A program made the position numbers and the translations under genes. A stretch of DNA of 12,945 bases from a virus (taxonomy: Duplodnaviria > Heunggongvirae > Uroviricota > Caudoviricetes). Under the pieces are notes generated by a model. That model did not search any database, had not been told where the DNA came from, and was given only the letters and a program-made list of their open reading frames with translations. Shown in pieces: positions 1,288-8,932 of this stretch (position 1 is its first letter; each line of letters starts with the position of its first letter). The stretch spans positions 1 through 12,945 of IMG/VR virus record IMGVR_UViG_2778261277_000020; one strand, given 5' to 3'.

Positions 1288-3672
1288 TTAAAAATCAGCC
1301 TGACTCGGGATCAGTTTTTGCCAGATAACTGAAACGTATTTTGCCTGGTAACGGGCGTCATCAAGTGCATTATGGCGCTCACCTTCGAATGGAATAGCCG
1401 TTCTGGCATCGAAGTCTATGGCTTTCCCCAGCTCAACGATTGTGCGTACATCGCGATCGTTGTGGTAGCGCCACGGGCAGGGGATCCCCTGCCGTTCATA
1501 TGAACGGCGTAAAATTACGTTGTCGAAGTTGGCTCCATTTCCCCAGACCTGAACAAAAAATTCACCGGAGTTTTCGGCGATAAATTCCCGCAATTGCAGT
1601 AGTGCATCATCTAACGGGATTTCATCGGTCAGAATGGTAGATTGCGCCTCGCGTGATTGCTTAAGCCACCATTTAATGGTGCCACGATCAATGACTCCGC
1701 CAGCAGTATCCAGATCGATGGTCTTACTAAATTCCGGTCCCATATCTCCGGTTTGCGGATCGAAAAATATTGCACCTATTGAGATAATCGGCGCATCAGG
1801 ATTTTTTCCCATCGTTTCAAGGTCGATCATTAGATGGTCACACGTCCTGCTGGTGGATGTGATAACGTGATGACCATTCACCGTAATTAAGGGATCTGTC
1901 GTCTCGCCAGTTTCACTATCGCTGGCGTGGTCCTGAGCGCTGCCAGCATTCTCCTTGTGTGGATGTTCAGCGCCTTCCATTTCCTCCGGATCTTTTTCCT
2001 GAGCTTCAGCCTGATTTTCTTTATCGAATGTTTCCTGGTATGTTGCGTCGCCCATCACTGCGCCACAATCAGGGCAGTTGCCTCCTCCCGGCTGACCGCA
2101 GGTATCGCAGACTTTCTCCTGCACAGGTTGATTTTCGACGTCGCTATTTTCCGTTTTTTCGACTTCATCTGAGAGGATTTGATGGCCGGGAATCCATTTC
2201 GGATCATTCGGGTCGCTAATCCCTTCAACAAATTCTCCGCGAGAGGCAGCCAGCAACTTATCGGCGTCAGGCTGGCTGACGTTTGCTGCCTGCATAATTT
2301 TGTTTACTTCGTTAGCGGTAACTTTTACCTGATTGACGGGATTTACCTGTGACTGAGCATCCAGCGGCTGCGTGTCCTGATGATGTTCAGTTGCATCCGG
2401 TTCCATTGTTTCAGCCGCTGCCTGTTCACATGCCATTGCGCCAGATGGTTGCGGTTTTTCTGCATCATTTTTTTCTTCTTCTGTTTCTTGCCCGGCAGCC
2501 AGCTCGCGGTTTATTTCTTCCAGAATATCTTTTTCCGGTGTATGTCGGGCAGCCGTGAGTGTTTCCTGGCTGGGGTTCTCGTGATCAGTCTCCGTTAAAT
2601 GGGCGTTGATATACCCCTGAAGGCGTCCCGGGTAGTGATAAAATTCAGGGTGTGCGCTTCGGATAAGTGCAAAAATAGCGGCGCGAGAGTAGTCCAGGAT
2701 ACCCGGGGTTGAGCGAAGTGCTGCTGACCACTCCCTGAACGGACTTTCTTTCTTCCGGACGATTTCTTTTGCGCGGCGATAAACGCTGCCAGGAATGTCA
2801 TAAATATTAAAATCCATCGGAAGCGTGGCTGCTGCAATCTCCAGATCCAGTGTATCGAGGGTGTGTACTAAATCCGGATTACGATCGGTTTTGTTTCCGC
2901 CTCCGGCATTTGCACCGGAAGCCGTACGGGTGATACGCGAAACACGATTTCCTTTCATCCACTCTTTTGTCAGCAGGCCGCGATCGGTGTAGTCAGCGTC
3001 CAGGTATGCTTCGAAAAAAGCAGTCATTAATCCCAGACTGGAATTAACGGGATTAGGGAAAACTTTGTCAGTGTCGCGAACCAGTTTGTGGTGGTCGCGA
3101 AGTTCCAGTGGGTCGAGCAGGCTGGTTTTGTGCGAAATAGCCAGGGCAGTAACTGCCGGTAGCTCTTCAGCCCGAGCGATATGTAATGCCTGAAGTTCAT
3201 CTCTTGAAACGTGTGTTACTGGTTTTTCGCTGCCGTGTTGAGCAAGCCAACGGATTGCCACCTCCTGACCGGAAACTGGCAGGAGCATGCTCTCCTCAAT
3301 CTCCGTCATGTCTTCGCCGTTAACATTGGTATTTTCGGTGCTGGCTGGTTTGTTCTGCACAGAGGGAGATGGCGCGGTGAATACCATTGTGATGCCATCT
3401 TCACCGCCTTTTTCATAGCGGTTACAGAATTCGGTATCAAACACGCCTTCTGGTGGAAGGTCATTCACAACAGGCAAATGGACGCGAACAGGTTTTTTAA
3501 AGTCCTCTTCGTCGTAACCAGCATCATCCATTGCGACATTACCGCGGGAAACTGCAACAGATAATTTTTTTGCTGTAGTCCAGTAAAAACCTCCTTTAAT
3601 ACCGAGACGTTTTCTGACTTTGTCATTTTTGGCTTCGTAATGGAGTGCAATGTCTTGTTTGTCAGTGCTCAT
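1288..3672 (-). CDS. Exodeoxyribonuclease VIII-like protein (794 aa): RecE-like N-terminal/central region fused to a C-terminal DEDDh (DnaQ-like) 3'-5' exonuclease domain
   Basis: ATG at 3672 with GAGG 9 nt upstream. Central segments ([57 protein letters not shown], Cys-x2-Cys...Cys-x2-Cys [17 protein letters not shown]) match my memory of the E. coli Rac RecE N-terminal region. The C-terminal ~180 aa carry DEDDh motifs (MIDLETMG; [10 protein letters not shown]; HNALDDARY). Confidence 0.8.
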
Positions 3673-4048: not shown

Positions 4049-4132
4049 ATTTTTCTCCTTAATTAAGGTTGAGTGAATCCCTGCCATTGCTGGCATATAA
4101 GAATGAAACCGTACATTTGTGACGTAGCTGCT

Positions 4133-4324
4133 TTAAATACTTGTCGTGACTTCTTTATTATCCTGACGAATAACTTTATCAACCTGATAACAGTTACCTG
4201 GAATTTTCTGTTCTTCTGCAGCAGCCATGCATTCTTTCATGGAGTTGTATATTCCTGTAACTATATCAACCGGTTCACCGGAAACAAGAAAAACAGTCAT
4301 AACAAGCGCGAATACTGTATTCAT
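4133..4324 (-). CDS. Small protein (63 aa) with hydrophobic N-terminus (signal peptide or single TM helix), two Cys
   Basis: ATG at 4324 with GGAGA 5 nt upstream; start overlaps stop of upstream gene (TGATG). N-terminus MNTVFALVMTVFLVSG is hydrophobic. Confidence 0.5.
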   Translation of the reverse strand: MNTVFALVMTVFLVSGEPVDIVTGIYNSMKECMAAAEEQKIPGNCYQVDKVIRQDNKEVTTSI

Positions 4325-4509
4325 CAGTGTCTCCAGAAAATACCAAGTCTGAGAAGAGCCATTCTGGAAAGTATGGAATTATCATTGAGAAAATAAGGCT
4401 CATATTTCCTCATATTAATGGCATCTTCAGTAAACTCACGGTTACTGATTTGAACACCAATTTCAAAACAACCTTCAGATGTATTGATGTTGGGTAATAA
4501 CGTTTCCAT
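4324..4509 (-). CDS. Hypothetical protein (61 aa)
   Basis: ATG at 4509 with GAGGAA 8 nt upstream; lies 14 nt downstream of the rha stop; same-strand operon context. Confidence 0.45.
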   Translation of the reverse strand: METLLPNINTSEGCFEIGVQISNREFTEDAINMRKYEPYFLNDNSILSRMALLRLGIFWRH

Positions 4510-4523
4510 TATCGTTTCCTCGA

Positions 4524-5078
4524 TCAATGGATATTAAGTAACTGCTCCACGGTCATATTTTTAATTACGTCCCTGTTCACAAGCGTCCATCCCTGTTTCT
4601 CCAGATAAAAGCGGAAGGTATCCAGGGTGCAGACCATTGCACCATCAGGAACGGTTTCAGTGAATTTGATGTTGCCGTGTTCGTCGAGACGGATAACCAG
4701 GGTACGTCCGTCCCCGTGAATCATTTTGTCGGGAGACGGGGCGTTATTCTGGCGCAGTTCTTTCTCCATGCGATCGAACTCAGCGATGTAGGCTTCTTTA
4801 AATGCAGCGGCTTTTTTGCCGGTGAAGCCCATCACCAGGAAAACGAAGCCGTTTTTGGTGATTTGGTACATAGGGAGTTTGCGTCCTGTTGAGTCGGTGT
4901 ATTCGCTCGACACAAAATTGTGCTCAGTGAATTTTGCTGAACAGTCCAGATTGCGAATTTTATCCAACACTCGTTCGTGGCGTTTACCAAAGAACTCGGC
5001 GATCGCAACAGACGTAGTGACAGCGCGACCATTTTCGATGGTTACATCAGGGTGATAAATGGTAGGGGTAGTAGCCAT
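4524..5078 (-). CDS. rha: Rha-family phage regulatory protein (184 aa)
   Basis: N-terminal ~100 aa (IENGRAVTTSVAIAEFFGKRHERVLDKIRNLDCS...MYQITKNGFVFLVMGFTGKKAAAFKEAYIAEF) match the Rha domain as I recall it. ATG at 5078 with GGAGG 8 nt upstream. The 282-aa ORF in the track is an in-frame upstream extension that contains a terminator hairpin. Confidence 0.8.
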   Translation of the reverse strand: MATTPTIYHPDVTIENGRAVTTSVAIAEFFGKRHERVLDKIRNLDCSAKFTEHNFVSSEYTDSTGRKLPMYQITKNGFVFLVMGFTGKKAAAFKEAYIAEFDRMEKELRQNNAPSPDKMIHGDGRTLVIRLDEHGNIKFTETVPDGAMVCTLDTFRFYLEKQGWTLVNRDVIKNMTVEQLLNIH

Positions 5079-5244
5079 GATGGCAGCCTCCGCGATGAAT
5101 TTAATTAACTCACCACCAGAGGTGCTAATCTCATGGGTGGTGAGACGCACAGGGTTAGCACTACCGGTCATCACGGAACCCGGCCAGCCTTGCGGCTGCC
5201 CTGCACGCCTCACCATAATGCGAATGTGGCTGTGCTTAACGCAT

Positions 5245-5267
5245 AAAAAAACCGCCTGAGCGCGGTT
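5245..5267 (-). terminator. Minus-strand intrinsic-terminator-like hairpin (6-bp stem AACCGC / GCGGTT, 6-nt loop) followed by U7
   Basis: Plus-strand sequence AAAAAAACCGCCTGAGCGCGGTT at 5245-5267; on the minus strand this is stem-loop plus TTTTTTT. Confidence 0.5.
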
Positions 5268-5948
5268 ATGCGCCGTGATTGACTTCGGGGTGCTAATCCC
5301 GGCACCCGTTTTATGAGGTGCAGATGAACTATAATTCCACCCGTACTGGTTTTCAATAGCTACATTCAACATTTTCTCTTACCCTTCATCACCGAAGTGA
5401 ACTTTGTTGATGCAGTGCCTGGTGCCTCCAGGTGACGTTAACCAGTTAACAATTAACGCCGGAATACAGAAGTATGCCCGTTACGCCCCGTAAAAGACCA
5501 CTTTACGGTTTTAACTGTTCCGCGTGCGCTTAGCCGCATTCACCGCATCACAAAATTCACTTTAAAAAGGGTGGCAGAGCAGTCACGGAGTAGAACTGAT
5601 GCCACCAAAGACTACACATGGGTATTGTGGCGGGGCTGTCACTTAAGCGTATGGTCAACCTGACAACCCGGTGCATTTTCTGGAGCAATGGAGGAAACCC
5701 CAGCCATACTTACCGCCGCGCCATTTCGCGGATTGCCACAACCGGAAGCGCACGTTCGAGGAAATCTAACGACAAGCCTTCTAAGGGAAAGAGCTTCGCC
5801 GTACGCTTTCGCGTTATGCCCTGACTTTTCAGGGAAATATCCTTTCAGTAAACTGTCAGTACCGGATTCTTATCCGTGTCCGGCGCACGACCGCACGTGA
5901 CAGCGTGTTGGTCTCCATTTTTAACCCAGAACCTCAATGGAGGATAAA

Positions 5949-6961: not shown

Positions 6962-7139
6962 GTTGACCTCATTTCCCCTTAACGCCGGGTAGCGGAACAA
7001 AAACCTGCTGCATAGTTATTAAAGTTGAACCCTGCCGTCATGTTCTTACGCCTCGGGCTGGCTACTTAACCCCTGACCACTGCCTGGTAACTCGAAGTAT
7101 TGCCTGGCGTTCTGTGGGCGGGGTGGGTTGGTGAATACA

Positions 7140-7186
7140 ATCTACAATTAAAAACTGTTTTATGTCAACAGTTTTTAATTGTAGAT
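7140..7186. promoter_or_regulatory. 47-bp perfect palindrome (20-bp arms ATCTACAATTAAAAACTGTT, 7-bp spacer): candidate OL-like operator
   Basis: Read directly; shares the half-site TACAAT(A/T)AAAAACTGT with the palindrome at 8178-8218; lies between the terminator after parE and the first leftward gene. Confidence 0.6.
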
Positions 7187-7192
7187 CTGAGC

Positions 7193-7215
7193 AAAAAAAA
7201 TCCCTCGAAAGAGGG
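7193..7215 (-). terminator. Minus-strand intrinsic-terminator-like hairpin (CCCTC-GAAA-GAGGG) followed by U8, downstream of parE
   Basis: Plus strand AAAAAAAATCCCTCGAAAGAGGG at 7193-7215; on the minus strand this is stem-loop then 8 U; about 20 nt past the parE stop (7235). Confidence 0.5.
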
Positions 7216-7234
7216 AGTATGAAAATTGTTCAGC

Positions 7235-7522
7235 TCAGATAGAGGAGGGAAATTGTCGGCGAGCATGTATCACGCTTACAATCTCAATGCTTGAAGCAGC
7301 TACTCTGTACAGGATTATGTAGTTAGGGTGGGTCACTATCTCTCTCACCCCTGAAACCCGTTCGCTTAGTGGATATAGGTACGGATGCTCAGATAGAGGT
7401 AATACCGATGTTTCAATGCGTATTTTTAGTCTGCGCGCTGCCGGTGGGTTCTCCTTGGCGATGTAAGTTATGATCTGACGCAAATCATCGCGAGCAGATG
7501 GTAGCCATAAAATGGGTAACAT
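7235..7522 (-). CDS. parE: ParE/RelE-family toxin (95 aa)
   Basis: Sequence LRQIITYIAKENPPAARRL...IVSVIHARRQFP is typical of ParE toxins; start overlaps the antitoxin stop (TAATG). Confidence 0.85.
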   Translation of the reverse strand: MLPILWLPSARDDLRQIITYIAKENPPAARRLKIRIETSVLPLSEHPYLYPLSERVSGVREIVTHPNYIILYRVAASSIEIVSVIHARRQFPSSI

Positions 7523-7713
7523 TACTCGCTCCTGTTAGTTACAACGATTTGAGCAATAAGATTTTCCATTTCAGCCATTACCTCGTCATGTGGAATTGCG
7601 GGACGAGGGTCTGCAAGGCTCGACGCTACTTTAGCGCGCAACCATTCGTTGTAACTGTTTTCTTGTTCGATAGTTTCGAATTCTGAAACTATCGGAGAAA
7701 GGGCTGTACCCAT
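7522..7713 (-). CDS. paaA: PaaA2-like antitoxin (63 aa)
   Basis: SEFETIEQENSYNEWLRAKVASSLADPRPAIPHDEV matches my memory of PaaA2 from the E. coli O157 paaR2-paaA2-parE2 module; GAGGAG SD 7 nt upstream of ATG 7713. Confidence 0.75.
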   Translation of the reverse strand: MGTALSPIVSEFETIEQENSYNEWLRAKVASSLADPRPAIPHDEVMAEMENLIAQIVVTNRSE

Positions 7714-7740
7714 GGCATAACTCCTCTTCTTGTACTGTGG

Positions 7741-8142
7741 TCACGCCCGGCGGCTTTTTTGTGCCGCCAGCCACCGGGCAATGGTTTCTTCCATTGATTT
7801 TTTCTTGTCTTTGATTTCTTGAAGCATTTTTTCTTGGTCTTCCTCAGGGAACGCACTAAAAGCCTGGAGCAGTTCGCGTTGGCGAGGACCAATTTTCATC
7901 GTGTCAGGGGTGAAAATTTGCTCCCCCTCTTCAGGAGGCAATAAAAACCAATGCAATGGATGCCCTGTAACCTCAACCAGTTTATCCAAACTTGAGGCTT
8001 TAGGTGTAGCCTTACCGCTGACCCATTGTTGAACAGTTTGTTGTGTCACACCAATTCTACGGGCAAGCTCAGCCTGGCTCCATCCAGTTTCCTGAAGAAG
8101 CTTGCTGATTCTGTACATAGATACTTCTAGGGCGCTCATCAT
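7741..8142 (-). CDS. paaR: PaaR2-like / CI-like HTH (XRE family) transcriptional repressor (133 aa)
   Basis: N-terminal HTH (WSQAELARRIGVTQQTVQQWVSG); first gene of the three-gene cassette; divergent from a cro-like gene across a palindromic operator; no SD before the ATG (possibly leaderless). Confidence 0.75.
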   Translation of the reverse strand: MMSALEVSMYRISKLLQETGWSQAELARRIGVTQQTVQQWVSGKATPKASSLDKLVEVTGHPLHWFLLPPEEGEQIFTPDTMKIGPRQRELLQAFSAFPEEDQEKMLQEIKDKKKSMEETIARWLAAQKSRRA

Positions 8143-8177
8143 TATTCAATTTTACAGGTAAATACTGTTAAAAGCAT

Positions 8178-8218
8178 TACAATAAAAAACTGTTGATCAA
8201 ATACAGTTTTTTATTGTA
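8178..8218. promoter_or_regulatory. 41-bp perfect palindrome (16-bp arms TACAATAAAAAACTGT, 9-bp spacer TGATCAAAT) in the divergent paaR / ydaS control region: candidate OR-like operator
   Basis: Read directly; sits between paaR start (8142) and ydaS start (8251); a TATAGT -10-like hexamer at 8228-8233 lies just downstream on the plus strand. Confidence 0.6.
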
Positions 8219-8250
8219 GCCTTTGCCTATAGTTTTTAGAGGAGGGGAAA

Positions 8251-8523
8251 ATGCTAGATAGCACTCGCGAAAAAATTAGGCAGAAATACACTCAGGCTGA
8301 AATAGGTCGTTATATGGGGGTCGCCCAACAGACCGTTTGGCAATGGTTTAGCTTTGGCGTCCCCCCAAAGCAGGTAATTCCGCTATGTCAGCTAATGAAG
8401 TGGGAAGTTACCCCGCATGAAATTCGCCCAGACATTTACCCTAACCCAACTGACGGTTTACCTGTTGGATGTAAGGCTAACACACCAAATGCACCGGAGA
8501 TGATTCATGAAAATCAAGCATGA
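8251..8523 (+). CDS. ydaS: Cro-like HTH protein of the YdaS family (90 aa)
   Basis: Strong SD GAGGAGGGG then ATG 8251; HTH AEIGRYMGVAQQTVWQW and the EIRPDI motif I associate with YdaS/Cro-like proteins; divergent from the repressor gene. Confidence 0.75.
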   Translation: MLDSTREKIRQKYTQAEIGRYMGVAQQTVWQWFSFGVPPKQVIPLCQLMKWEVTPHEIRPDIYPNPTDGLPVGCKANTPNAPEMIHENQA

Positions 8524-8932
8524 ACATATCCGCATGGCGATGAATGCCTGGGCGCATCCGGACGGCGAAAAAGTACCGGCTGCGAAAATTACCAAAGCGT
8601 ATTTCGAGCTGGGAATGACGTTCCCGGAACTGTATGACGACAGCCATCCGGAAGCCCTGGCTCGCAATACTCAGAAAATTTTCCGCTGGGTGGAGAAAGA
8701 CACCCCTGATGCGGTTAAAAAAATTCAGGCGTTGTTACCAGCTATCGAAAAAGCAATGCCACCTCTGCTGGTGGCCCGAATGCGCAGCCATAGCTCAGCC
8801 TATTTTCGGGAACTGGTGGAGACGCGGGAACGACTGGTGAGAGACGCTGATGATTTTGTCGCAGTGGCGATCGCTGGTTTCAACCAGATGAATCGTGGTG
8901 GCCCTGCAGGAAATATTGTGGCTGTGCATTGA
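8507..8932 (+). CDS. ydaT: YdaT-like protein (CII functional analogue), 141 aa
   Basis: Starts MKIKHEHI..., as I recall for Rac / CP-933P YdaT; overlaps ydaS by 17 nt; GGAGA SD 7 nt upstream. Confidence 0.75.
   Translation: MKIKHEHIRMAMNAWAHPDGEKVPAAKITKAYFELGMTFPELYDDSHPEALARNTQKIFRWVEKDTPDAVKKIQALLPAIEKAMPPLLVARMRSHSSAYFRELVETRERLVRDADDFVAVAIAGFNQMNRGGPAGNIVAVH

Follow-up and report, generated by a model that had tools for sequence, protein, structure and literature searches.

A three-gene toxin-antitoxin cassette occupies, in the 12,945-nucleotide stretch of viral DNA analysed here (the window), the place where lambda carries cI and rexA-rexB, and the locus raises the question of whether the regulator of the cassette is also the repressor of the prophage, and what the toxin and antitoxin are doing behind it. 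The initial annotation had suggested that the regulator sits in the cI slot and may be the prophage repressor; the slot itself, a set of OR- and OL-like putative operators and the existence of orthologues without toxin-antitoxin genes support that suggestion. We propose, with good confidence, that this is the immunity region of an Sp4/CP-933M-like lambdoid prophage, in which the regulator would be the lysogeny repressor and paaA-parE its co-transcribed cargo. The idea of a CI analogue is not new, having been published in 2021 for the sister system PaaR2 (PMC8630535).

Pfam searches upheld, position for position, the three co-directional minus-strand genes (HTH regulator, antitoxin and ParE) of the initial annotation: a paaR1-type regulator of 133 aa (7741-8142; HTH_3, 1.8e-13, with Phage_CI_repr also above its cutoff), a paaA1-type antitoxin of 63 aa (7522-7713; PaaA2, PF21217, 3.2e-22) and a parE1-type toxin of 95 aa (7235-7522; ParE_toxin, PF05016, 5e-17). 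The likeness to PaaR2, PaaA2 and ParE2 was borne out by alignment, as the regulator matches the phage Evi copy of PaaR2 at 42% over 98 aa (E 6e-21), with identity peaking in the C-terminal 46 aa, and PDB sequence searches match the antitoxin to the PaaA2 structure 3zbe (E 1.4e-23) and residues 1-92 of the toxin to the ParE2 structure 5cw7 (E 2.3e-35). PF21217 is the sole Pfam match of the antitoxin, in which no DNA-binding domain is detectable. The locus thus has the features of a three-component toxin-antitoxin system, namely a terminal ParE-family toxin, an overlapping PaaA-family antitoxin lacking a DNA-binding domain and a co-directional, PaaR-related HTH regulator. By sequence, the cassette is of the paaR1-paaA1-parE1 type (Sakai Sp4/CP-933M) already described in E. 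coli lambdoid prophages; the Sakai Sp4 proteins ECs_1069, ECs_1068 and ECs_1067 are 98.5%, 90.5% and 94.7% identical to the paaR, paaA and parE products, ECs_1069 carries the annotation 'phage repressor protein', and the paaA and parE reading frames are intact and equal in length to those of Sp4. The first O157:H7 system is named PaaA1/ParE1 in the literature; paaR1-paaA1-parE1 of O157:H7 CP-933M is attributed to Hallez et al. 2010 in the citations given by PMC8630535 and PMC4803016, and PMC8630535 places a paaR2-paaA2-parE2 homologue on CP-933M. The cassette is real but ordinary, a module common in E. coli prophages that already had a name: of 5,426 complete E. coli genomes, 509 carry 80% or more of the 1.6-kb region. 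This ParE family was found in only one of 50,697 phage records. Most carriers may be defective prophages whose switch has lost control over any lytic cycle.

The genes are tightly packed. The TAATG overlap noticed between antitoxin and toxin is indeed the junction of the paaA stop and the parE start, with one base in common at 7522, and a 27-nt gap with a GAGGAG Shine-Dalgarno sequence separates paaR from paaA. Directly 3' of parE, and ahead of OL and PL, lies the terminator that had been predicted there (7193-7216, minus strand), a G+C-rich stem (7216-7201 on the minus strand; TCCCTC/GAGGGA) followed by T8; the same arrangement is found in Sp4, in Salmonella and at locus L012, where a different regulator precedes a PaaA2/ParE2-type pair. 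Neither a consensus scan nor sequence reading revealed a minus-strand promoter-like site within 7235-8142. This pattern of short gap, 1-nt overlap and one terminator is consistent with a single paaR-paaA-parE operon under the regulator's repression. It would be quite unlikely, in our judgement, for paaA-parE to be regulated largely apart from the switch, through a PaaA-ParE complex or an internal promoter, with its location an accident of insertion. In the summary that a review gives of Hallez et al. 2010, a PaaA-ParE complex partly represses the paaR promoter and no three-protein complex is detected; moreover, the pair moves between different regulators, and the paralogous toxin-antitoxin genes are transcribed appreciably in both states of the switch (PMC8630535). 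Against this, the 27-nt gap holds the Shine-Dalgarno sequence only, the interval contains no promoter-like site, the sole terminator follows parE and PaaA has no DNA-binding domain. The position of paaA-parE between the repressor gene and the terminator implies instead that the pair would be co-transcribed with the repressor in lysogens.

The surroundings of the cassette are those of a lambdoid immunity region. The gene order is int-xis-exonuclease-DicB-...-DUF1391, then parE-paaA-paaR, then ydaS-ydaT-O-P, so that the regulator lies between a leftward early operon (DUF1391, DicF, DicB, exonuclease, xis, int) and the replication genes. The initial annotation was also right that the regulator diverges from a cro-like gene across a long palindrome (8178-8218): opposite it stand a ydaS-family gene for a Cro analogue (8251-8523, plus strand; PF15943, 8.1e-10; phrog_35, 1.5e-28), whose HTH segment AQQTVWQW resembles the regulator's TQQTVQQW, and a ydaT-family gene for a CII analogue (8507-8932, plus strand; PF06254, 1.1e-9; phrog_163 'CII-like activator', 3.5e-45), whose product is 97% identical to the CP-933P-type YdaT. 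At the ydaS/ydaT junction, in a PRE-like region, a predicted YdaT box ATGATTCATGAAAATCAA (8500-8517) shows one mismatch to TTGATT-N6-AATCAA, the footprinted YdaT operator (PMC9986795). It is the sole match in the window, where 0.07 are expected, and Evi, Sp4 and L012-15 all carry its 17-nt core unchanged. In the 12.9-kb window, which is one part of the prophage, no further HTH repressor or S24 protein was found in the interval from int to the replication genes; this includes any separate cI-like repressor of the kind that the initial annotation had set against its own proposal.

The regulator itself has the build of a short repressor. The phage 434 repressor is its best PDB sequence match (E 2e-5), and its AlphaFold2 model, predicted with no Evi PaaR2 row in the input, places helices at 4-67, disorder at 77-83 and helices at 86-132. 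On this model the fold is an N-terminal 434-like HTH followed by a C-terminal helical hairpin common with PaaR2. Searches of the PDB by sequence and by fold returned HTH domains and no full-length PaaR-like structure, so any function given to the hairpin is putative. There is no Peptidase_S24 match in Pfam, and the model holds nothing but the helical hairpin after the HTH; the absence of this self-cleavage domain makes the regulator a CI analogue of the short DicA/RacR/Gifsy kind and not a homologue of lambda CI. The NCBIfam DicA model NF007257 aligns to residues 11-130 but scores 52.5 bits, short of its 101-bit cutoff, and on this sequence measure the regulator is a distant relative of DicA, not a member of the DicA subfamily.

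Comparison of orthologous loci, drawn from contigs encoding regulator orthologues, separates the regulator from its cargo. In Salmonella an orthologue with 82% identity (indexed in 582 blocks of the collection) and in Raoultella one with 69% identity hold the same slot and are followed by unrelated genes, while the Morganella orthologue has no cargo, its OL-like sites directly following the regulator. All three are full-length, including the C-terminal domain, and lack the toxin-antitoxin pair, and a PaaA2/ParE2-type pair also occurs behind the different regulator of L012; the DNA identity profile puts the replaced segment between the regulator stop and the terminator/OL region. A scan of genome contigs with the regulator protein alone returned one distant locus (Arsenophonus). 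Because orthologues keep the slot with different cargo or none, the regulator appears to be first of all a prophage repressor, and the toxin-antitoxin pair a swappable cargo behind it. These loci bear directly on the view that the regulator serves the toxin-antitoxin genes exclusively, as the DNA-binding module of a 'split antitoxin' that acts on its own operon only, with the true repressor elsewhere. Such a view would fit the lack of a DNA-binding domain in PaaA, the first description of the system as a three-component toxin-antitoxin and the weak matches of the HTH to HipB/MqsA-type antitoxin models. It leaves unexplained why full-length orthologues hold the slot without the pair, why a second putative operator pair lies outside the operon, at a PL-like promoter some 1 kb distant, and why the window has no other repressor, and the paralogue represses both PR and PL (PMC8630535); we therefore regard it as highly improbable and retain the regulator as the probable prophage repressor.

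Four of the five putative operators of this repressor lie in two palindromes that flank the cassette. The OR-side palindrome (8178-8218) has 16-nt arms and a 9-nt spacer, and the near-identical second palindrome that had been reported beyond the terminator is present on the OL side (7140-7186), with 20-nt arms and a 7-nt spacer; the arms are 100% complementary in both, and the palindromes share 86% similarity across 42 nt. Each resolves into a pair of 15-bp dyads of the form ACAR-N7-YTGT. The stricter motif ACARTN5AYTGT occurs four times in the window, always inside the palindromes, where shuffled sequences lead one to expect 0.04 (none of 200 shuffles reached four). A long palindrome was ruled out as a single operator: a third OR dyad falls beyond the ends of the palindrome, and Salmonella, Raoultella and Morganella keep 15-bp dyads at about 24-25 bp without the long-range symmetry. 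The palindrome centres, CTGT-N9-ACAG, were likewise rejected as LexA boxes, since the spacing is N9 and not N8; no CTGT-N8-ACAG LexA box occurs anywhere in the window, and two adjacent operators whose inner ends flank a -35 hexamer account for the pattern.

The sequence thus suggests three putative operators at OR and two at OL. The OR3-like site ACAGGTAAATACTGT (8154-8168) is centred at -19 from the paaR ATG, a position kept in Sp4, Salmonella and Raoultella; the OR2-like site ACAATAAAAAACTGT (8179-8193) is centred at -44 from the ATG and at about -43 relative to a PR start inferred near 8229; and the OR1-like site ACAGTTTTTTATTGT (8203-8217) abuts the PR-like -10 hexamer, with base 8217 in common. 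On the left, the OL1-like site ACAATTAAAAACTGT (7144-7158) abuts the PL-like -10 hexamer, with base 7144 in common, and the OL2-like site ACAGTTTTTAATTGT (7168-7182) abuts the PL -35 hexamer. Sp4, Salmonella and Raoultella repeat the three-plus-two layout with positions unchanged, and Morganella has two-plus-two, with variable spacers between sites; neither of the heteroimmune loci L002 and L012 contains the ACAR-N7-YTGT motif. Among the loci examined, residue 39 in helix 3 of the regulator tracks operator position 4, Q39 going with A or G, and K39 (L012) or R39 (L018) with C. The operator assignment draws on this covariation together with pattern and conservation.

The promoters associated with these sites resemble, in their predicted geometry, a lambda-style layout. 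A PL-like promoter for the leftward operon (TTGACA-18-TAGATT; 7139-7168, minus strand) was called by the consensus scan with 10 of 12 matches, and its layout is the same in Sp4, Salmonella and L012. The scan called neither PR nor PRM, which were assigned from conservation and geometry. For ydaS-ydaT, sequence reading gives a PR-like promoter (TTGATC-18-TAGCCT; 8193-8222, plus strand) whose -10 element is a poor consensus match and which falls under the scan threshold; its elements TTGAYN and TAnnCT stand at the same positions in four genera. For paaR, a PRM-like -10 hexamer TAAAAT (8149-8154, minus strand) ends 6 nt before the ATG, behind a -35 element, ATGCTT, that matches the consensus poorly. 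The hexamer and its 6-nt gap are kept in the window, Sp4, Salmonella and Raoultella, with the 6 nt themselves varying, and the paaR2 locus, leaderless by experiment, has the same gap (GATAAT-6-ATG). The paaR mRNA accordingly appears, as a prediction, to be leaderless.

We propose a series of linked steps for this switch. The repressor, a short non-cleavable CI analogue, would bind the 15-bp dyads through its 434-like HTH, and the PR-like and PL-like promoters would be silenced once OR1/OR2 and OL1/OL2 are filled. From OR2, a dimer would be placed to stimulate the weak, leaderless PRM-like promoter, and through OR3 the repressor would limit its own synthesis. YdaS would compete for these dyads in the manner of Cro, and YdaT, acting through its box, would drive a PRE-like leftward promoter in the manner of CII. 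The order in which the operators fill, activation from OR2, looping between OL and OR and a role of the C-terminal hairpin in oligomerisation are what we infer from this arrangement, while DNA binding, bistability, leaderless translation, the PL copy and addiction are carried over by analogy from experiments on the paralogue. The gene identities, the anatomy, the pattern and conservation of the operators and the modularity of the cargo come from the present analysis. The cargo itself would be a two-gene type II toxin-antitoxin pair inserted between the repressor gene and the terminator.

The closest known relative is Sp4/CP-933M, which has the same three genes in the same order, agrees with the window in the five dyads and their positions as well as in its terminator and PL layout, and has a YdaS 96.7% identical and a nucleotide divergence of about 4-5%. 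The left backbone differs, as a Rha/isrK/C4 module and a phrog_2151 gene of the window are missing from Sp4, and the O/P-like replication genes differ from those of Sp4. The Rha-type protein is encoded within 4524-5372. Experimental precedent comes from the paaR2 region of CP-933P, in which Jurenas et al. 2021 established PaaR2 as a CI analogue, YdaS as Cro and YdaT as CII, with a PL/OL copy, and showed bistability, addiction and a leaderless paaR2; PaaR2 likewise has no S24 domain (PMC8630535). The two regions share the leftward repressor and toxin-antitoxin genes, the divergent Cro and CII analogues, the OL/PL copy, the -10 element 6 nt from the ATG, a near-identical YdaT with its box and the C-terminal domain of the regulator. 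They differ in their DNA-binding domains, which are unrelated in sequence (overall identity 34% for the regulator and 18% for YdaS), in their operators, which in CP-933P are 18-bp repeats with the consensus GTTTAGTAA, and in their toxin-antitoxin pairs, which are 65-68% identical and reported not to cross-neutralise. With such unlike DNA-binding domains, operators and toxin-antitoxin pairs, the paaR1 and paaR2 systems are expected to be heteroimmune.

Other short repressors, DicA (Qin), RacR (Rac) and GfoR/GtgR (Gifsy-1/-2), are also of about 130-150 aa, with an HTH and a short C-terminal part, and occupy the cI slot, facing YdaS/DicC-type genes. The regulator is 33% identical to the Gifsy repressors and resembles DicA over its full length, and the leftward operon shares DicF and DicB with Qin. 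In phage 434, the recognition helix TQQSIEQL resembles that of the regulator and the operator half-site begins with ACAA, as the half-sites here begin with ACAA or ACAG; the 434 operator differs in its length of 14 bp, and the C-terminal domain of the regulator is unrelated and non-cleavable. Lambda arranges its repressor gene, lysogen-expressed rexA-rexB cargo, terminator and OL/PL in this order, with OR1-3, OL1-3 and a weak leaderless PRM. The three-part OR, the 24-25 bp between operator centres and the weak, predicted leaderless PRM-like promoter are lambda-like, whereas the two recognisable OL sites, the lack of S24 and the absence of an identified cIII or N homologue from the window are not.

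The parallel with rexAB drawn by the initial annotation holds for position and transcription only: PaaA and ParE have no sequence relationship to RexA or RexB, and no PADLOC defence model is matched by PaaA, ParE or the alternative cargo genes. That ParE is a RexAB-like effector of superinfection exclusion or abortive infection, acting from the lysogen, would agree with this arrangement and with the unrelated unknown genes that fill the slot in other prophages, as expected of a moron or defence slot. We nevertheless consider it very unlikely, in view of the lack of a PADLOC match and of the behaviour of the paralogue, whose toxin showed no activity in either switch state and for which the authors favoured addiction, backed by plasmid stabilisation (PMC8630535). 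By analogy, the likeliest role of paaA-parE is addiction, stabilising the prophage or its immunity region. As the paralogous genes are transcribed in both states and toxin activity was observed in neither, the wiring of the toxin into the switch may have little consequence.

A broader reading is doubtful as a whole, and we offer it tentatively. In it, paaA-parE may be an addiction cargo that is portable and moves from one heteroimmune version of a common repressor scaffold to another; the scaffold may combine a constant C-terminal hairpin with exchangeable 434-like recognition helices, residue 39 setting operator position 4. The non-cleavable repressor may in turn be inactivated by an RNA-gated (isrK/C4) Rha-type antirepressor from its own PL operon, and this may provide a positive-feedback commitment step in place of RecA-stimulated cleavage.

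As a discovery the locus carries little weight, the CI-like role of the regulator family being already published. To this the analysis adds a sequence-based, five-dyad operator model for the PaaR1 immunity type, a lambda-like promoter geometry, the covariation of residue 39 with an operator base, and the modularity of the cargo. The comparative evidence indicates that a genuine prophage repressor is followed by a moron slot in which the toxin-antitoxin pair is an optional cargo, which bears on the annotation of 'three-component toxin-antitoxin systems' and of 'YdaS/YdaT toxins'.

The cassette consists of three co-directional minus-strand genes, as the initial annotation had proposed: an HTH regulator (paaR, 7741-8142, 133 aa; HTH_3 1.8e-13, with the Phage_CI_repr cutoff also passed), a paaA-family antitoxin (7522-7713, 63 aa; PF21217, PaaA2, 3.2e-22, the only family matched; PDB 3zbe, E 1.4e-23) and a parE toxin (7235-7522, 95 aa; PF05016, 5e-17; ParE2 structure 5cw7, E 2.3e-35). 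The antitoxin/toxin overlap and the terminator described there are both present, the antitoxin stop and toxin start meeting in TAATG and a G+C-rich hairpin followed by T8 lying directly 3' of parE. The 27 nt between paaR and paaA include a GAGGAG Shine-Dalgarno sequence. Divergent from the regulator, the gene read as cro-like belongs to the YdaS family; a YdaT-family gene comes next. An antisense promoter-like site inside parE (TTGTCG-18-TACAAT, 7253-7282, plus strand) is probably due to chance, because promoter-like sites are no commoner in the region than in shuffles. The 1.6-kb region is 95.7% identical in nucleotides to an E. coli O157:H7 prophage, and at least 80% of it is found in 509 of 5,426 complete E. 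coli genomes. Its Sakai equivalent is ECs_1067-1069 of prophage Sp4, where ECs_1069 is already annotated as 'phage repressor protein'; the window proteins match those of Sp4 at 98.5% identity for the regulator, 90.5% for the antitoxin, 94.7% for the toxin, 96.7% for YdaS and 92.2% for YdaT. According to the literature, the O157:H7 prophage CP-933M carries a paaR2-paaA2-parE2 homologue, and O157:H7 possesses two paralogous systems, without cross-neutralisation by the antitoxins. Together with the Sp4 match, this identifies the window cassette as the paaR1-paaA1-parE1 type. Among 50,697 phage records, the ParE family of the window occurs in one, phage Evi, in which the gene is unannotated; carriers of the cassette may mostly be defective or rarely induced prophages.

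The suggestion that the toxin-antitoxin regulator serves as the prophage repressor in the cI slot is supported by our results, and coincides with what has been published for the sister system (system 2) of CP-933P, where Jurenas et al. (2021, PMC8630535) showed CI-like roles for PaaR2; both the system and the CI-like idea were therefore already known. In CP-933P, PaaR2 occupies the cI slot, is made from a leaderless mRNA, as cI is, and lacks a peptidase motif; footprints of both PaaR2 and YdaS fall on the 97-bp intergenic region. Promoters of the PR and PL types are repressed by PaaR2, which at low level stimulates the PRM-type promoter; YdaT activates the PRE-type promoter, and the switch locus is bistable (PMC8630535). 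We took the CP-933P type sequence from phage Evi, whose regulator begins with MQKKE, the start found experimentally for PaaR2. The alignments proposed earlier confirmed the kinship: the window regulator is 42% identical to the Evi PaaR2 type over 98 aa, mostly within the C-terminal 46 residues, the antitoxin and toxin match the PaaA2 and ParE2 structures cited, and ParE is ~65% identical to the ParE2-type protein of Evi. YdaS of the window is unrelated to that of the CP-933P type (18%); YdaT is 97% identical.

The two near-identical palindromes first noted (7140-7186, perfect 20-nt arms; 8178-8218, perfect 16-nt arms) are indeed present and 86% alike. Five repeats of 16-17 nt, at 7143, 7168, 8153, 8178 and 8203, are spaced ~25 bp apart within each cluster, and each is a 15-bp dyad ACA(A/G)(G/T)-N5-(A/C)(C/T)TGT. 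The stricter ACARTN5AYTGT has four matches in the window, all among these repeats, with 0.04 expected; the fifth putative operator (8154-8168) fits the looser pattern. Three dyads between the regulator and ydaS (OR) and two after the downstream terminator (OL) also occur in Sp4, Salmonella and Raoultella (regulator identity to the window 82% in Salmonella and 69% in Raoultella), and their OR regions align with that of the window without gaps, the ACA/TGT ends being kept and the dyad centres and spacers varying. Morganella has a 2+2 layout, and the dyads are absent at the heteroimmune loci compared, the Evi/CP-933P type and a third E. coli immunity type (L012). From the shared layout and the conserved dyad ends, we infer that each long palindrome is two adjacent putative operators, with the third OR dyad outside the palindrome.

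The promoter geometry of the paaR1 locus is likewise our reading of the sequence. TAAAAT stands exactly 6 nt ahead of the paaR ATG in the window, Sp4, Salmonella and Raoultella, and in these four the intervening 6 nt vary and contain no Shine-Dalgarno sequence; paaR2, leaderless by experiment, has GATAAT-6-ATG (PMC8630535). With +1 at 8142, the dyad centres fall at -19, -44 and -68. Lambda PRM has OR3 lying over its core promoter and OR2 next to a weak -35 hexamer; the window dyads would share this layout. At both the PR-like (TTGATC-18-TAGCCT) and the PL-like (TTGACA-18-TAGATT) promoter, one dyad adjoins the -35 hexamer and another the -10 hexamer, and these hexamers are kept in all four genera compared. 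Just downstream of the PL-like promoter in leftward transcription, ~150 bp (~6975-7135, containing CACCAACCCACCCCGCCCACAG) are 93-100% identical among the heteroimmune Evi/CP-933P type, Sp4 and L012. Several unrelated phage records also contain the segment, at 91-95% identity and at places without annotation; it is a conserved untranslated leader or a recombination boundary. An in-frame ATG stands 9 nt ahead of the called start of the L012 regulator (MTTLEI..., 3486-3503) and exactly 6 nt past a TAAAAT hexamer, and the genuine leaderless proteins are probably the 135-aa MKRMTTLEI... forms (L012, P0077-type proteins).

Among solved structures, the best relative of the regulator's DNA-binding domain is 434 repressor, whose helix 3 (TQQSIEQL) aligns with TQQTVQQW. 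In every case with Q39 (window, Sp4, Salmonella, Raoultella, Morganella, Serratia) operator position 4 is A or G, and the regulators with K39 (L012) or R39 (the metagenomic locus L018) have ACAC...GTGT sites. Because the YdaS helix (AQQTVWQW) is very similar, the data are consistent with competition between YdaS and the regulator for the same putative sites; this likeness and the residue 39/position 4 pairing are a correlation, not proof of binding.

The AlphaFold model of the regulator (mean pLDDT 81) has helices over 4-67, leaves 77-83 disordered and folds 86-132 into a helical hairpin; a fold search returned HTH domains only, and a Pfam search found no S24 peptidase domain. The best NCBIfam model is DicA, matched over the full length with a score under the cutoff, and DicA is relieved by the antirepressor Rem (PMC10448788). 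The Gifsy-1 and Gifsy-2 repressors, which match the regulator at 33% identity, are inactivated by antirepressors, not by cleavage (PMC3121763). The window contains no LexA box. On the minus strand, the leftward operon carries Rfam matches to DicF (5569-5620, 61 bits), isrK (5245-5321, 69 bits) and C4 antisense RNA (5133-5220, 81 bits). Both isrK and C4 overlap the 'Ash' part at the 5' end of a 282-aa ORF (mechanical ORF 4524-5372), the rest of which is a Rha/antirepressor-like domain; the annotated ORF may be overlong at its 5' end. This isrK/C4/Rha-type locus resembles the Gifsy-1 isrK-orf45-anrP locus and P1 immI, and by analogy could provide an antirepressor route for a non-cleavable repressor. 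Elsewhere, a 794-aa 'exonuclease' (1288-3672, minus strand) combines an Exonuc_VIII N-terminal region with a C-terminal Rv2179c-like 3'-5' exoribonuclease domain (1.1e-66). The parallel drawn with rexAB exclusion holds in part. Like lambda rexAB, paaA-parE lies downstream of the repressor, ends before OL/PL and is probably co-transcribed with the repressor; but neither PaaA nor ParE matches a PADLOC defence model, and the paralogous pair is addictive yet activated in neither switch state, toxin activity being detected in neither and an addiction role being favoured (PMC8630535). The resemblance is positional only.

In Salmonella and Raoultella, a full-length regulator orthologue occupies the same slot, divergent from YdaS/YdaT, and is accompanied by an unrelated gene (112 or 120 aa in Salmonella, 133 aa in Raoultella). 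These replacement genes (4053-4415 in the Salmonella loci L004 and L005; 4030-4431 in the Raoultella locus L008) have no match among Pfam, NCBIfam or PADLOC families; the Salmonella protein has 120 aa in L005-L007 and, as called, 112 aa in L004, and its sole signal is a sub-threshold one to EACC1 (E 1.2e-4). By sliding identity, the window and the Salmonella locus are homologous over the regulator and again over OL plus the PL leader, but ~7210-7720, from the regulator stop to the terminator/OL region, is unrelated. Morganella has OL-like sites directly after the regulator; in L012 the pair is of the PaaA2/ParE2 type, its proteins being 95% and 88% identical to those of the Evi/CP-933P type, and it follows a PaaR1-family regulator whose specificity differs. 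L018, a fourth variant, also has a PaaA-ParE pair. On the single L018 contig, a YoeB/YefM pair (3004-3506) lies ~0.7 kb past that pair on the opposite strand, and two toxin-antitoxin modules therefore flank one immunity region. We read the toxin-antitoxin pair as cargo in this slot; the Salmonella and Raoultella replacement genes are predicted to be lysogen-expressed cargo. The C-terminal hairpin of the regulator is kept where the toxin-antitoxin pair is absent, which argues against an interface specific to the pair. What we add to the published picture is incremental: an operator model, the covariation between residue and base, and a comparison of the cargo slot, the last of which takes further the proposal by Jurenas et al. 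of an insertion of the pair into an immunity region (PMC8630535).
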